Assembly: GCA_963825865.1 (NCBI GenBank)
Contig: CAWGVG010000060.1
Location: 160,001-224,000, forward strand
DNA: 64,000 nt
Direction of reading: 5' to 3'
Origin: an uncultured Nitrososphaeraceae archaeon
GTDB taxonomy: Archaea > Thermoproteota > Nitrososphaeria > Nitrososphaerales > Nitrososphaeraceae
The notes under the pieces were generated by a model. The model was not told where the DNA came from. It worked only from the letters and a program-made list of their open reading frames with translations, and did not search any database. The stretch's first letter is position 1. Each line of letters starts with the position of its first letter. A program made the translations under genes and the position numbers. Shown piece after piece: positions 3,179 to 56,491 of the stretch.

Positions 3179-4381
3179 ATGGTAGAAGAAGACAAAGGAA
3201 AACAAGGAGAATACTCTTCCCTCATCAGTAACAATGAGAATAATAATAATGGTGCTTCTAACGCTGAATTTAAGGTTACACCATGGGAAGTCGAAGGAGA
3301 AATAGATTATAATAAACTGATAGAAAAGTTTGGTACTGAGCCAATTACGCAGGAAATACTTGAAAGAGTCAAAAAGATAACGGGAGAAATTCATCCGATG
3401 TTAAGGCTACAATACTTTTTTTCTCATCGTGATTTTGACTGGATTTTAGATAAGTATGAAAGAAGCGAAAATTTTTACCTTTATACTGGAAGAGGGCCAT
3501 CTGGAATGGTTCATATGGGCCATTTGATGCCGTGGATTTTCACAAAATATCTTCAAGATAAATTTGATTCTAAATTATTATTCCAATTAACAGACGATGA
3601 AAAATTCCTATATAGCCAAGATCGTAGCAAAGAAGAGATTGCACGATACACCTATGAGAATATACTTGATATAATTGCAGTAGGATTTAATCCACATAAA
3701 ACAAAAATTATAGTTGACACAAGGCATATTCAATATCTGTATCCCGTTGCTACAGAAATTTCAAAGAGGATCACATATTCAGTCGCAAAGTCAGTATTTG
3801 GTTTTTCAAATTCTACGAATATCGGCATGATAGGATTTCCTCCGATACAAGCTGCCCCTTGTTTTTTACCTTCAATTATTGAAGGTAAACCAACTCCAGT
3901 TTTAATTCCGGCGGCCATAGATCAGGATCCTTACTGGAGGATGACAAGGGATGTGGCCGAAAAGATGGGTTATTACAAGCCGGCACAGATCCACAGCAAG
4001 TTCATCCCCGGGCTTGGTTTGCTAGGCAAGATGTCGTCTTCAAAACCTCAGACTGCAATACTCACGTCAGACGAACCAGAAATTATAGAGAAAAAAATTT
4101 CTAACGCCTTCACAGGAGGTCAATCTACTATCGCACTGCAAAGGCAGCTAGGCGGAAACGCTATTGGCTGCCCAGTTTTCTGGTATTTACGATACTTCTT
4201 TGATACGGAAAAACAATCAGATGAACGTTTATTAAAATGCAAGAGTGGAAACCTGCTTTGCGGAGAATGTAAGAGCGATTTAGCAAAAGAATCAAAATCA
4301 TTTATGGTAGATTTTAAGAAGCGTCGAGAAAAAGCAAAAGACGCTGTTCCCGAATTCATGTACGATGGTAAACCCCTTTAA
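3179..4381 (+). CDS. trpS: Tryptophan--tRNA ligase
   Basis: VTPWEV, YTGRGPS..HMGH, IDQDPY and KMSSS motifs of archaeal/eukaryotic TrpRS. Confidence 0.97.
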   Translation: MVEEDKGKQGEYSSLISNNENNNNGASNAEFKVTPWEVEGEIDYNKLIEKFGTEPITQEILERVKKITGEIHPMLRLQYFFSHRDFDWILDKYERSENFYLYTGRGPSGMVHMGHLMPWIFTKYLQDKFDSKLLFQLTDDEKFLYSQDRSKEEIARYTYENILDIIAVGFNPHKTKIIVDTRHIQYLYPVATEISKRITYSVAKSVFGFSNSTNIGMIGFPPIQAAPCFLPSIIEGKPTPVLIPAAIDQDPYWRMTRDVAEKMGYYKPAQIHSKFIPGLGLLGKMSSSKPQTAILTSDEPEIIEKKISNAFTGGQSTIALQRQLGGNAIGCPVFWYLRYFFDTEKQSDERLLKCKSGNLLCGECKSDLAKESKSFMVDFKKRREKAKDAVPEFMYDGKPL

Positions 4382-4731: not shown

Positions 4732-5788
4732 AGACCTGTTGCGTAATTGAAGGCTTACAGCTATATTTTACGTTGTACAGCATTCATTGGGTGATGCTGT
4801 CTTGATGTCTTATGCTAGACTATCGAAGAGGCCTTTGTTATTCAAATCGTTTACTGGGTTGGAGATAACAGAATTTGATACCATTTCCAGGGAAATAGAA
4901 TCAAAATATGATGAACATGAAGGAATACGACTTTCCAGAAGGAAGAGGAAAAGAGGTATTGGTGCTGGCAGACCATTCAAACTGAAAGAAGTCAGAGAAA
5001 GATTCTTGATGCTTTTAGTCTATTATAGACTGTACATTACATACACACTTTCAGGATTTCTATTCGATTCTACCAGAGTAATATCTGCAGAGATATATCT
5101 ATGCTTGAACCACTTATCAAACGGTGTATCCCACTGCCAAAGAAGTTGTATAAACGTACAAGAAGGCTTAGGACTATAGATGAAGTTGAAGAGTACTTTC
5201 CAGGTTTCAAGGCTTTCATAGATTCTTCCGAACAGGAGATACCAAGGCCAGAGAACAAGAGAAAGAGAAAGAGCTACTACTCTGGCAAAAAGAAGAAACA
5301 TACTGTAAAGACACAGTATATGGTAAACGGTGAAGGTACGATACTGCACAAAACAGGTCATGATAGGGGAAGAATACATGATTATGAGATTTTCAAAAAT
5401 AAACATCCTATAACTCCGCTGCAAGTTGAGAATGTCCTTGACCTTGGGTACATGGGAGTTAAGAATGACTTTCCCACTGTAAAGTATGTACTGCCATTTA
5501 AAAAGAAAAGGAAAAGTGAACTCTCAGATGAGGAAAAGAGACATAACAGAAAGCATTCCAAATTAAGGATAATAGTCGAGCATACGGTAAGCAGAATTAA
5601 AAAGTTTGGAATAATGGGTACTAAATTCAGAAACAGGCTTGGAAGATATGATCATGCTTCCGACATTGTTTCAGGATTGGTAAACTTCAGAATAATGCGA
5701 ACCATTGGAATGATGTTACTTTAGAAAGCAAGCAAGCCAAAGTTAAGTATCATAAAGAGATTTTCTTTCGTAATTACGCAATAGGTCT
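4732..5788 (+). mobile_element. IS5-family (ISL2-like) insertion sequence
   Basis: 17-bp terminal inverted repeats AGACCTGTTGCGTAATT / AATTACGCAATAGGTCT (16/17 match), 3-bp target duplication AAT, enclosing a transposase. Confidence 0.92.
4787..5724 (+). CDS. IS5-family DDE transposase (HTH + DDE domain), one frameshift near 5070
   Basis: FKSFTGL, GAGRPFKL, IDSSEQEIPRP, YSGKKKKHTVK, DLGYMG, RIIVEH. Confidence 0.9.
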
Positions 5789-47232: not shown

Positions 47233-47451
47233 CTAAGGTAAGGATCTGCAGAATGAGCTGGCTCTTTGTTGTTCCACCCTTACCCAACCCTTACCATCAC
47301 AACAATTGCATCTTTCTTCACTTCGTCGTGGCAGTGAAATACAGAAAGAATTTAGACAATCATTACTGTTATTACTGTTATCTTCTTTACACTGTACAGA
47401 GCCTGATCCATGGCACACATGACACTTTACAACATCACTAAATAAGGTCAA
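47233..47451 (-). CDS. Small DnaJ-type CxxCxGxG zinc-finger protein
   Basis: CHVCHGSG and CNCCDGKG. Confidence 0.65.
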   Translation of the reverse strand: MTLFSDVVKCHVCHGSGSVQCKEDNSNNSNDCLNSFCISLPRRSEERCNCCDGKGWVRVEQQRASSFCRSLP

Positions 47452-47470
47452 TGGAATAGCTGATCTCCTA

Positions 47471-47656
47471 TCAAAAACGTTCCTCGGTTTTTGATACCTT
47501 TAATGGATCTGGAATTTTAATTATATCACTATTTTTTCTGTGAATTGTATTTAAAAGCTCACATTCACAATCACTATTTATCCTAACATATCTTCCACAA
47601 TTCGCACACAAGACATACTGGGGATCGTATTCCTTTGCATAGAGAGCAATTATCAT
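47471..47656 (-). CDS. Small Cys/His protein
   Basis: CANC...C.C.....H; co-oriented with the previous gene. Confidence 0.5.
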   Translation of the reverse strand: MIIALYAKEYDPQYVLCANCGRYVRINSDCECELLNTIHRKNSDIIKIPDPLKVSKTEERF

Positions 47657-48117
47657 AATATTATATTTACTCTGAAATATATAAAATTTACTTATTATCC
47701 TATTTAATCGAAATTTACTTATTAAAGTTAATTGTTTGTTTAATATTTATATGTATTTTAATACAAATGTAAGGATTCTACAAATATGATAAAATGGATT
47801 CTGCTTTAATCATTGTTTATTTAATTTTGGAAAGGACAATAATTTAATTAGTTCTGGATAATTCTCATTGTCGACCGGAACATTATGTTCCTAATAGAAT
47901 CGTGGCAGCCAGGAGCTTTAACCAAAGTGGCGTTGAATGTTTTATTTAATCAATATCTACAAACTAAGGATACACAGCTTCAGCAGAATGGCATTATGTT
48001 ACATCATTCTATCTAACATTCAAAGACTAAACGTGCAAGAAAAGTAGCGATACCGGTCAAAAGAGAGGAGGAGAAGAAGAAGGAGCACTTAGATATCGTA
48101 AAGTACGATATTGAATG

Positions 48118-48501
48118 TTATTCTCTTATACCTTCAAGGTTTGATACAACCTGCCATAGCATCGTTCTAATATGCGATTTCATTGCCTTGTCTTGTGTCA
48201 GTCTATCTAGCATGCTAACGGCATTTGCCGCTCTTACAGATAAGCTAAATTTTTGCTCTTTATCTTTCAATAAAACAAGTAATTCATTTATACTACCTTT
48301 TATACTTCTATTAACTTCACGATAATGATTTCGATTTATATTTTCAAGTGTCACTATTGCAGCATTTAAATTTTCGTGGTTAGTCTTATTCTGTAATAGT
48401 TCTTTTTCTTTCTTTGTTGTTCTCTTATGGGGTGTGCCAGCTATTGGTGTTGTTTTTTCTATGTCTGTCATAGTGAACTTTTCATTATATGTGCATGCCA
48501 T
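48118..48501 (-). CDS. UPF0147-family protein (divergent)
   Basis: SVRAANAVSMLD..TQD..M.SH.RT.LWQVVS.LE.IRE. Confidence 0.8.
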   Translation of the reverse strand: MACTYNEKFTMTDIEKTTPIAGTPHKRTTKKEKELLQNKTNHENLNAAIVTLENINRNHYREVNRSIKGSINELLVLLKDKEQKFSLSVRAANAVSMLDRLTQDKAMKSHIRTMLWQVVSNLEGIRE

Positions 48502-49749
48502 TATAAATTAATATGTTCATAGTGAATTATGAAATATAAATGATATTTGGACTACAAAATCTGGAAAAAGGGAAACAGGTTGGTGGAATGTCGGAGCAGA
48601 TTTGACTCATATTTACCACGTAAAAGAGCATTTTTCATAAATCAAAAGATGATGATCATCATTATTATTAGCTCCAACAAAGATATTTTTGCGGTACTTT
48701 TGTAAACATCTACTGCTTGTAACATTTCCAATGTTCATATTGTTTTACCCCGCCTCCTCCTGCTTTATCAACTTCTATCATATCTTTACAATATCTGCAC
48801 CGAATGGGAGCCTTTTCAATACTCTCCTGTTTTCTGTTCATTTTTATTATATTTATGTACATATGTTTCTAATATTTTTATAACACAACGATTAGCCATC
48901 AATATGATTGGTACTTTCTTTAGAAGTCTATCAATTGAAATAGCGATTAATACTTCGGATTCTTTTTTCTATTGTTGTCACTAAATGCCAAAAACTCAAT
49001 TCTATCATATCATCTAGGCTACTGTATTCATATACTGTTGATGTTTGTCTATTGCAGTTTTTGTTTTTATGGTATTTTGTAATTTGTAGTTTTTCTTTCA
49101 TTTTTTGTTTCAAACCTCAAGTCCTTCATGAAAAACAGTAAGATTTTTTTCTCTTCAATCAAAAGAGTAAGACTTTCTCTCGAAGAAATTATCTACGTAA
49201 AAAGTTTAATCAGGATTGAAAGTGATTCTATGCAATAAATTCATCAGCTTGTAAACCATATGTGATGAGTATCACAAGTACAACAAACCTGAAGCAACAA
49301 CAACTAAAAAACAACAAATAGCAGGTAAAAAGAATATAAAACAACTATTCATAGCGCAGTGTGAAAATTGTTATTGACAATTTGAACTACTGTATATGAT
49401 TATTTAATTTGAAAAATGTGTTAGTCACTCTATGCTCCTGACTTAAATAGTGCCCTTCCTGAAACAACAATTAGTAAATTAAAGTCTGGAGAATAAAACT
49501 AATATTTTATTACGAAGAATAAAAAGAATAGAAACATGGGATTAATTGAATTTTTATTCTACCCAACTATGATTATGAAGTGAACAGATGTTCTATATCT
49601 CATCAAGTATGAGGGCTAATAGTAGACACAGCTATCATTATGAAACGCTTTGCTAATCATAATCTCTTTATATAAATCATAAGGGATTTTTATTAAATTA
49701 GAATAGTAAGTTACAAGATTGCTATAGATGTAGGAAACCTGATATTGGT

Positions 49750-50031
49750 ATGAGAGATAGAGACAAACTGAATTAATTGCATCTATTCTAAAAGCCACCA
49801 ATGAAAGAAATGTAAATGCGAGCACAAATAATGTATAAGGCATTTTTATCATATACCCGGATGAAACAATATGTATCAATATTAGTTGATGCGGGCTTAA
49901 TAAAATATCAAGAAGGAAATCGAAGAGCTTATAGAATAACTGACATTGGAATGAGGTTTTTACATTTACACAATCAGCTTGGTGAATTGCTTACCAATCC
50001 TTCCCACTCAAAAACAGTTATTATACACTAA
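49750..50031 (+). CDS. Winged-helix transcriptional regulator (frameshift near 49815)
   Basis: R..TELIASIL..., IMYKAFLSY..MK.Y...L...GLI.Y......Y.IT..G..FL. Confidence 0.85.
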
Positions 50032-50081: not shown

Positions 50082-50478
50082 CTACACCTTGGCAACACAC
50101 CTAATCTCGATCATGAGCTCCGGGAACGCAAGACGCTGAATTTGCACGATGGTGCTTGCCACAACTGGGATGCCGAAAAAGACCTCCTGCCTGCATTTGA
50201 CTGCCGCGGCGAAGGCCGCCTCCATATCCGTCACGAAGAGTATCTCATCGGCTATGTTATCCATCGTTGCCCCATACTGTGCGAGCACCTTCCGGATGTT
50301 GGCATATGCCTGGCGCATCTGTGCCTCCATATCTCCGAGACCGATGATACTGCCACCTGTCGTCATGACTCACCTGCCCAGATAGATAGATGGTGTCCCC
50401 AACTTTCACCGCCTGGGCGTAACCGTACTCTTTCTCCCAAGGCATACCAAAGCTCTTAGTTTCCTTGTCGATTGTCAT
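50082..50478 (-). CDS. RidA/YjgF-family protein, bacterial-type and GC-rich (one frameshift)
   Basis: WEKEYGYAQAVKVGDTIYLSGQV...QMRQAYANI...LAFPELMIEI; Shine-Dalgarno AAGGGAG. Confidence 0.9.
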
Positions 50479-50510
50479 AATGTGTCTCCCTTAATGTTAA
50501 TTGTGAAACT

Positions 50511-50569
50511 TCCTAACGCATAAGCTAACCAGCGCGAATAGCGCATCCGAGTTGAGTTCCATGTTAGGC
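50511..50569 (-). mobile_element. attC: Integron attC site (59-base element)
   Basis: Minus strand GCCTAAC-N5-ACTCAACT-N19-GGTTAGC-N6-GTTAGGA = R''/L''/L'/R' with an extrahelical base and central hairpin. Confidence 0.85.
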
Positions 50570-50994
50570 ATATCCAAAATCCTTGGGTCTAGGTGCAGCA
50601 CCCATCATGTTTTTTTATGGAGTTAGTTAATAATAAAGTTATTTGACAAACTTTATACTATATCTAATTAATACTGCCACATTTCTATAACTAACTGTTC
50701 GTGGTATATATAAACAAATTGAGTAAACGTGGTCATATACGTTGGATCAACAAGATAAGAGAAAATTAAAAATAATAATGGCTATAATAGCTGCGAGTGT
50801 AATGGCAAGAATATTAATATTTTATATAATTTCTAAATAGATAGCCTCCTGTTCGTCTCTAGCAAATAAAGGTATTGACCTCTCCTATATACGACCAGAA
50901 TGCTTCTCTTAGATCTGTGGTAACCTATTGAATTTCTACAATTCATACAATAGAGTTTAAACCTAGTAGTGAGCTCTCAAAGTGTCATCGTTCT

Positions 50995-55867: not shown

Positions 55868-56491
55868 ATGACAATATCAATAGACAAATCCATAGAAAAA
55901 GAAAAAGAAAACACAATTCAAGCACAAAGAAGACCATCAACATCCAAGAAGCATTAATCCTAAACAGACGGTCTTCCAGGTCTATGACAGGAGAAGAATT
56001 AGATGAGGATACTATAATGAGTCTTTTTGAAGCTGCAAGGTGGGCACCAACATCCTACAACAATCAACCATGGAGATTTATCTATGCCAAGAGAAATACT
56101 GAGAATTGGAATAAACTTTTCAATTTGCTAGCAGAACCCAACAAAGTGTGGACAAAAAATGCTGCTTTGTTGGTTGTAGTAGTATCAAGGAAAAATTCCG
56201 AATACAATGAGAAATACTCTATAACACATAAATTTGATGCTGGAGCTGCTTGGGAGAATATAGCTTTAGAAGCGTCATCAAGAGGATTGGTAGCACACGG
56301 AATGCAAGGATTTGATTATGAGAAAGCAAGAGTAGATTTGGAAATCCCAGATAACTTTGATGAAATGGCTATGATTGCAATAGGAAAGAAAGGACCAAAA
56401 GAAAATCTCCTAACAATTGCAAAATAAAGAATTTCCTAACGATAGAAAATCATTGAATGAAATAGTGATGGAAGGCACATTTAGAAAATGA
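55868..56491 (+). CDS. Nitroreductase family protein (frameshifts)
   Basis: RRSSRSM, EAARWAP.SYN.QPWRF, HGMQGFD. Confidence 0.9.

Follow-up and report, generated by a model that had tools for sequence, protein, structure and literature searches.

The DNA considered here is a stretch of 64,000 nucleotides (nt) from an uncultured Nitrososphaeraceae archaeon (contig CAWGVG010000060.1, positions 160,001 to 224,000 of the forward strand), referred to in full as the window. On its minus strand, a block at about 50082-50610 stands out by its guanine-plus-cytosine (GC) content of 0.53-0.57 (profiled across 50100-50450), with flanks at 0.24-0.36. This block comprises a Rid-family gene and, ahead of it, a 59-bp element resembling attC, the recombination site by which bacterial integrons shuffle gene cassettes; the origin and present state of this element are the subject of the analysis. 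The genome measures 4.98 Mb in 62 contigs, is 82% complete, and has its relatives among the Nitrososphaeraceae. It carries archaeal amoA (383 bits), and the organism is a soil ammonia oxidiser; a putative ammonia oxidiser had been supposed from the sequence alone. The principal features of the locus are as follows.

50511..50569, minus strand: degenerate lone attC-like site of 59 bp, recognised by its boxes and covariance-model scores
50569-50563, minus strand: R'' box GCCTAAC, followed by a 5-nt spacer
50557-50550, minus strand: L'' box ACTCAACT of 8 nt, with a bulged C
Between L'' and L', minus strand: central GCGC..GCGC hairpin of 4 bp
50530-50524, minus strand: L' box GGTTAGC, followed by a 6-nt spacer
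50517-50511, minus strand: R' box GTTAGGA, located in the sequence
50570..50610, minus strand: GC-richer stretch upstream of R'', whose frame, ending in GAAPRPKDFGYA, stops inside R''
50479..50516, minus strand: predicted 5' end of the Rid cassette, with TTAGGA, the GTTTCACAATT motif, AAGGGAG, and the start codon
50082..50478, minus strand: Rid-family (YjgF/UK114, PF01042) gene of 131 codons, from a Pfam match and open reading frame (ORF) pieces

The core-site consensus of attC is RYYYAAC for R'' and GTTRRRY for R'. The four boxes of the candidate, their spacings, the length of 59 bp, and the TAA inside GCCTAAC were all located where the original prediction had placed them. R'' and R' are complementary at 6 of 7 pairs, as inverse core sites should be. 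The seventh base of R' is A instead of the consensus Y, and the real dfrA12 attC (GTTAGCA) likewise ends in A. Between ACTCAACT and GGTTAGC, five Watson-Crick pairs and one G-T pair can be drawn around the bulged C, as expected of L boxes. For comparison, 12 attC sites were taken from cassette arrays in plasmid-borne class 1 integrons. Spacers of 5 and 6 nt recur in eight of them, and in five the TAA of the upstream gene lies inside R'', as does the TAA of the short frame MMGAAPRPKDFGYA in the window. The likeness to aadA-type sites holds box for box. Crossover is predicted between 50517 and 50516, and the ATG of the Rid gene lies 33 nt from the element, downstream on the minus strand.

Rfam contains no attC family and returned only two chance matches (E 7.7 and 9.9). 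Two proxy covariance models were built, both with the candidate excluded: R1 from 8 class 1 attC sites of uniform spacing, and R2 from 19 sites. On real sites outside its training set, R1 gave 15.0-52.6 bits overall, including aadA5 (28.7 bits), IMP-1 (23.1), dfrA17 (19.4), dfrA14 (15.0), and a qacL-linked site (52.6), as well as two integrase-adjacent sites on a cyanobacterial plasmid (30.6 and 21.5) and one beside an integrase-like gene of a Binatia genome (27.7). Searched over both strands of the window at E<=10, R1 returned a single match, positions 50511-50569 on the minus strand (25.8 bits, E roughly 1.6e-4). R2 likewise matched the candidate alone, both in the window (32.0 bits, E about 1.1e-5) and in the 4.98-Mb genome (E about 8.4e-4); the expectation of a lone attC with a significant model score was thus confirmed. 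A run of R1 on the whole genome gave zero matches, the candidate included, and is uninformative. R2 distinguishes the strands clearly, with 32.0 bits on the gene-sense strand vs 8.7 on the opposite one. At E<=1 it matched 2 of 121 family genomes, namely this one and G101, and in 479 kb of other loci it stayed at or below 14.7 bits everywhere away from a Rid gene. As a positive control, it recovered 19 sites in the Binatia genome and 16 in another bacterial genome.

Two of these genomes deserve separate mention. G101 is an unpublished Nitrososphaeraceae bin (83% complete, 4% contamination) with matches of 43.2 and 31.5 bits lying 590 nt apart on its contig C62 (266-917), a contig of 2 kb with a GC content of 0.50 and no Rid gene; the pair is either a small archaeal attC cluster or a misbinned bacterial contig. 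In the Binatia genome (G044, C4 148772-181048), an integrase-like gene was matched in two pieces about 1.6 kb apart, and attC matches run for about 27 kb beside this interrupted gene (C4:154-181 kb). This arrangement resembles that of a chromosomal integron whose integrase has been interrupted.

The Rid gene is split in the assembly by an extra G at about 50356, giving pieces at 50257-50478 and 50082-50366. Both pieces match PF01042, the C-terminal one with 52.7 bits at a cut-off of 27.3. An intact form of 131 amino acids, otherwise identical, was found in a protein collection (P0001), and the best relatives of solved structure are Rid and YjgF proteins. Against the NCBIfam model TIGR00004 for RidA, P0001 reaches 52.9 bits at a cut-off of 106.25. 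By these matches the protein is a member of the Rid family, and the TIGR00004 score lends no support to archetypal RidA status. The GC content at third codon positions (GC3) is 0.67, compared with a mean of 0.31 (range 0.24-0.39) in the 11 ORFs of at least 250 codons in the window. A Shine-Dalgarno-like AAGGGAG lies at 50492-50486 ahead of the ATG at 50478. Of the gene announced as a GC-richer RidA with its own Shine-Dalgarno sequence, the composition, the ribosome-binding motif, and the family assignment have therefore stood; the subfamily name has not, and the frame is split here. Broken Rid copies also exist elsewhere (L064, L088): one, on a Nitrospirales chromosome, is interrupted by an in-frame stop, and the other, archaeal, has its end frameshifted. 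Second copies were seen as well: a truncated one at 1057-1344 on a Nitrospiraceae contig (L039), 2 kb upstream, and a diverged tandem copy downstream, at about 3572-3971, in two Pyrinomonadaceae loci (L056, L063).

The context of the gene in bacteria bears directly on its history. Close relatives of the protein made up 2193 of 2196 candidates at E<=0.001. Scanning one genome per species gave 205 relatives, from which 80 loci were kept (43 archaeal and 37 bacterial, as classed by record title). An attC site adjoins the same Rid clade, on the strand of the gene, in 3 of the 37 bacterial loci. In L073 it lies 115 nt 3' of the stop codon and scores 37.3 bits with R1, before any use in training. 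In L060 one site lies 67 nt 3' of the stop (25.6 bits, R1) and another upstream (23.5 bits, R2), and in L053 the site is about 550 nt upstream of the Rid gene (28.8 bits, R2). Going by these neighbouring sites, some bacteria do carry members of this Rid clade in integron cassettes. The idea of cassette-borne homologues thus found support for the Rid gene; for the fragment upstream of R'', no homologue was found outside the Type A loci described below. A viral vector was also considered and set aside, as viral contigs hold only one distant Rid relative, at 37% identity.

The edges of homology among the archaeal loci are equally informative. A leader homologous to the window up to position 50650, here termed Type A, is present in 9 of the 43 archaeal genome loci and in 11 metagenome loci, one of which ends at a contig end. 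The metagenome loci came from a leader-pattern search that yielded 29; the 18 chance matches without the gene served as negative controls. In loci that are not of Type A, upstream homology to the window ends by 50512 or 50509, at most 7 nt from the predicted crossover. Downstream, homology never extends beyond 50071. A GT(T/C)TCACA motif is common to Acidobacteriota, a cyanobacterium, and an unclassified bacterium. In two of these bacterial loci an R'-like box (GTTAACT, ATTAGGC) is equally far from the shared GTTTCACA motif, and their sequences diverge upstream of the box. The L143 row of the underlying alignment has wrong coordinates and is to be disregarded. The stop in homology together with the R'-like boxes fits what the 5' edge of a cassette should look like in sequence. 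The stretch 50570-50610 may represent the 3' tail of the cassette that came before. Whether the upstream attC might be the Rid cassette's own, from a circular cassette that was opened, was also considered; the 100 nt 5' of R'' matched no bacterial 3' region. In one metagenome locus (L123), a 73-codon ORF with a hydrophobic tail (4986-5207, minus strand) has its TAA inside the R'' of the attC-like site, and the sequence 5' of that R'' is unrelated to other Type A loci.

Rid orthologues are common in the Nitrososphaeraceae and are not syntenic; the near-identical metagenome contig L143 alone shares a neighbour. Syntenic, vertically inherited orthologues, which would have told against a capture, are accordingly not the pattern observed. 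A nitroreductase-family gene at 55984-56427, 5.5 kb from the Rid gene, has counterparts at most about 0.5 kb upstream of Rid in the archaeal loci L025 and L062, and this proximity may be a trace of older synteny. At the nucleotide level the Rid gene is 80-85% identical to those of five other genera, vs 73-86% for the helicase gene of the window against the same genomes, so the age of Rid in the Nitrososphaeraceae does not clearly depart from what vertical descent would give. The GC content of Rid exceeds that of its flanks in all 43 archaeal loci, with a median excess of 0.10, and the bacterial median is -0.004 (37 loci). Base composition therefore points to bacteria, or at least to a GC-richer host, as the source; the direction from bacteria to archaea is drawn from this composition and not from a tree. 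The cross-domain capture proposed in the original prediction is thus upheld by the cassette context and the foreign GC content, and has to be widened in scope, as the module is not private to this genome and occurs in at least 20 related archaeal loci, with the junction more decayed in most of them than here.

The element looks like a relic rather than a working site. The best match to the integron integrase model TIGR02249 in the genome scores 38.2 bits against a cut-off of 265. No second attC was found within 1 kb with filters off, and none lies 3' of the Rid stop in the window or in any archaeal locus, which agrees with the earlier observation that the downstream site and, within the window, intI are missing. 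Neither an integrase nor a group of two or more attC sites within 4 kb, by which an integron or a cluster of attC sites lacking a nearby integrase (CALIN) is recognised, is present. Similarly, the combination of an ORF with its own attC that defines a cassette is found for the Rid gene in the bacterial loci L073 and L060 and is absent here. Orthologous sites in other Type A loci score in a graded manner with R2: 31.3 bits in L117, L121, L122, and L138, 30.5 in L143, 27.2 in L120, 20.2 in L123, 17.9 in L012, and 15.8 in L018, with no match in the remaining Type A loci. The GC3 of the Rid gene follows a similar order. It is 0.67 in the window and L143, 0.57-0.60 in the L117 group, L012, and L018, and at most 0.53 where the site is weak or gone, down to 0.37 in L021 and L134. 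Sites of 31.3 bits occur at a GC3 of 0.57-0.58 and those of 20.2, 17.9, and 15.8 bits at 0.53-0.60. The attC score thus drops along with Rid GC3 across Type A loci; as the loci are related, this amounts to a trend rather than a test, and it fits a joint decay after a single entry.

Taken together, the element is best read as a decayed lone attC from a bacterial integron at a cassette junction, shared by soil ammonia-oxidising archaea, and a probability of about 0.72 is assigned to this reading. The 59-bp element would mark where one gene cassette ends and the next, which bears the Rid gene, begins. A fragment of a cassette array, consisting of the tail and attC of one cassette and, after them, the Rid gene as far as its stop, would have entered the ancestor of a group of Nitrososphaeraceae and come to lie behind an archaeal TATA-like promoter. 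The module would since have been inherited, or passed among relatives, with the result that its surroundings now differ between genomes. The Rid gene would have drifted toward the composition of its host while the attC lost its hairpin. The genome studied here would then hold the least-changed copy, with a site that we infer to be inert today and that is probably a mere part of the transcribed leader of Rid.

Several results weigh against this reading. The bottom strand of the element folds with -7.5 kcal/mol (z -1.17), a value matched by 21 of 200 shuffles, so that the hairpin as a whole is no more stable than shuffled sequence and the stable fold expected of an attC site is lacking. By comparison, 14 real or likely real attC sites span -9.1 to -21.3 kcal/mol, with z below -2.8 in 9 of the 14. 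No covariation of the proposed pairs was detected in 11 orthologues (69.9% of cells paired vs 70.3% in shuffled alignments), which fits an inert relic and yet offers no positive support. A TAAC in R'' is restricted to the sub-clade of the window, the other Type A loci having TAGC, TAGT, or TCAT, and comparison among Type A loci does not settle the ancestral state of the box. In bacteria, 34 of the 37 loci have no attC near the Rid gene, and the two attC-less ones that were inspected have neighbourhoods of ordinary chromosomal appearance. Moreover, L075 (Binatia), with a gene near-identical to that of L073, is without its attC, and homology between the two stops 50 nt before it. The protein tree (81 rows by 131 columns) has 8 well-supported branches among 77 inner ones; it decides neither the direction nor the number of transfers, and a single archaeal origin is neither shown nor excluded by it. 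Furthermore, with a genome 82% complete, an integrase or an array could sit in the missing part, and the E-values quoted above are rough, as R1 and R2 are home-made models with shortened calibration.

Much of this would also be expected if the resemblance were fortuitous, that is, if an ordinary leader or another remnant, of no integron ancestry, had come by accident to share the attC layout in one sub-clade. A fold no better than shuffles and the lack of covariation would follow at once. The best R'' occurs only in the sub-clade of the window, and other orthologues score at most 17.9 bits. In addition, very many stretches of DNA were read at the outset, so that a match with an E of about 1e-3 per genome is expected somewhere by chance. 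Such an accident would, however, have to fall on the correct strand and 33 nt upstream of precisely a gene whose clade has attC neighbours in bacteria, and to coincide with the end of homology to other loci. Besides, of the 120 other genomes of the family, 119 show no comparable match, and neither do about 660 kb of other loci outside the vicinity of a Rid gene. A chance look-alike is on this account judged unlikely.

The opposite possibility is that the site is still competent for recombination and that the Rid module is excised or captured by an archaeal or bacterial integrase acting in trans. In its R and L boxes, its spacers, and its bulged base the element does match real sites of about 60 bp, the score lies within the range of held-out real sites, and the module has different surroundings in different genomes. 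Archaeal attC sites can be recombined by IntI1, which was the case for 8 of 9 in the accessible text of Ghaly et al. (2022). Nevertheless, the stability of the hairpin is far below that of real sites, no integrase was recovered (38.2 bits against 265), and the absence of a second attC within 1 kb means that there is no excisable unit. The edges of the shared module also differ from those of a cassette, as it begins about 130 nt 5' of R' and extends as far as the stop codon. Competence of the site is therefore very improbable. The broader idea that the attC-Rid module remains mobile, both from one soil ammonia-oxidising archaeon to another and between these archaea and bacteria, using the lone attC or the sequence flanking it as a recombination handle, is likewise given little credence. 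If it were true, the Nitrososphaeraceae would be active participants in the cassette pool without an integrase of their own.

The leader of the Rid gene contains two further features, of which the first marks the upstream edge of the conserved unit.

50629..50638, minus strand: AT-rich TATA-like box CTTTATTATT
50497..50601, minus strand: 34-codon frame from GTG to TAA, spanning the attC-like site

The region of CTTTATTATT is largely conserved in 8 of 11 aligned orthologues, as judged by eye, and lies about 30 nt before the 34-codon frame. From its sequence it may be an archaeal promoter reading through the relic into the Rid gene. The frame itself could be taken for a small upstream gene or leader peptide, with the palindrome as a by-product of coding. 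It is open in 11 of 12 orthologues, with indels of 3 or 6 nt, and the TATA-like box is suitably placed ahead of its start. Against this, the ratio of nonsynonymous to synonymous polymorphism (pN/pS) is 0.80 in the frame vs 0.90 and 0.67 in the other two, there is no Pfam match, and L117 has an in-frame stop; a leader peptide would moreover leave the model score and the bacterial cassette context unexplained. The 34-codon frame is probably incidental, and a genuine leader peptide appears far-fetched. Use of the frame as an argument against attC was dropped, since pN/pS shows no constraint at the protein level.

The soundness of the assembly was checked against public data. At least half of the sampled words from a 1.3-kb stretch over both edges were found in 17 public soil or rhizosphere runs from 8 studies. 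Four runs were compared with the stretch; one of them, X1, covers its last 260 nt only and is uninformative on the junctions. The contigs of the other three (X2, X3, and X15), from three studies, span both edges, at 50082 downstream and at about 50610-50650 upstream. As contigs of three independent studies run across both junctions, the island is genuine and the assembly is not chimeric. The contigs of these three runs all lack one base at 50356 and show further 1-nt indels relative to the window at 49764 and 49820. The broken Rid frame is hence an assembly error or a rare variant, and the gene is intact in the population. The three indels suggest an indel-prone assembly in which other apparent frameshifts may be artefacts. 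A chimera or contaminating bacterial DNA, which the sharp change in GC at both edges and three 1-nt indels within 1.3 kb might have suggested, is barely conceivable in view of these spanning contigs and of the 17 runs.

The wider surroundings of the island appear variable, with only short ORFs between 47 and 53 kb of the window. Downstream of the island, at 47233-48862, several small ORFs bearing CxxC pairs follow one another, together with a UPF0147 protein at 48118-48501. A winged-helix gene (PF14947, 49741-50031) adjoins the Rid gene downstream and belongs to a multi-copy family, with copies of 70-81% identity on contigs C48, C5, C18, and C26 of the genome and matches in other genomes of the family. 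An AT-rich segment of 101 nt at 50742-50842 has a second copy at C62:55262-55362 with 89% identity and does not bracket the Rid module. Its summed contig depth is raised in the public runs, where it also has loose ends, as expected of a repeat. A search for repeats bracketing the Rid module found none.

The significance of a worn site of this kind lies partly in how integrons are surveyed. According to the available part of the IntegronFinder 2.0 paper, a single attC can be a true positive and is no longer reported by default. The survey of Ghaly et al. (2022, Sci Adv 8:eabq6376), as given in its accessible text, identified integrons in 75 genomes of archaea from nine phyla, the Thermoproteota included. 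An integrase or at least two attC within 4 kb was required there and singleton attC were excluded, so that a site like the candidate would go uncounted. In the main text of that article, as accessible, neither 'Thaumarchaeota' nor 'Nitrososphaer' occurs, and its experiment concerned bacteria taking up archaeal cassettes. The accessible portion of Krupovic et al. (2019) mentions integrons only as a bacterial example. Among the titles and abstracts listed in the literature searches, no report of an attC in the Nitrososphaera group was found, nor one of an L-PSP integron cassette. Integrons carry genes from one bacterium to another and have been known in some archaea as well since 2022, but surveys discard single attC sites. 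A worn attC at the 5' edge of a foreign gene kept by many soil ammonia oxidisers would be a concrete and datable footprint of transfer. More generally, decayed single attC sites beside compositionally foreign genes could mark past cassette-mediated transfer, and the paired decay of attC and gene composition could give a rough clock.

Among known systems, the candidate can be compared with the short (about 60 bp) class 1 attC sites of aadA1, aadA2, and orfF. The order of parts is the same, with R'' ending in TAAC, 5 nt, an 8-nt L'' with a bulged C, a 7-nt L', 6 nt, and an R' beginning with GTTAG. Likewise, the upstream stop lies in R'' and the next gene begins tens of nucleotides after R' on the same strand. 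Unlike these sites, the candidate has a central stem of only 4 bp, a fold of -7.5 instead of -17 to -19 kcal/mol, and 5 instead of 7 Watson-Crick pairs in the L box, and it lacks an integrase, an attI, and a neighbouring attC. With respect to its gene, a match to PF01042 over a protein of 131 amino acids places the product in the Rid (YjgF/YER057c/UK114) family, and the RidA cut-off is not reached. A CALIN shares with the candidate the presence of attC without a nearby integrase. However, a CALIN comprises at least two sites, whereas the candidate is single, archaeal, decayed, and inherited within the leader of a gene. Finally, the archaeal integrons described in the accessible text of Ghaly et al. 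(2022) attest the same link between bacteria and archaea through cassettes, and the candidate points in the opposite direction, from bacteria into archaea.

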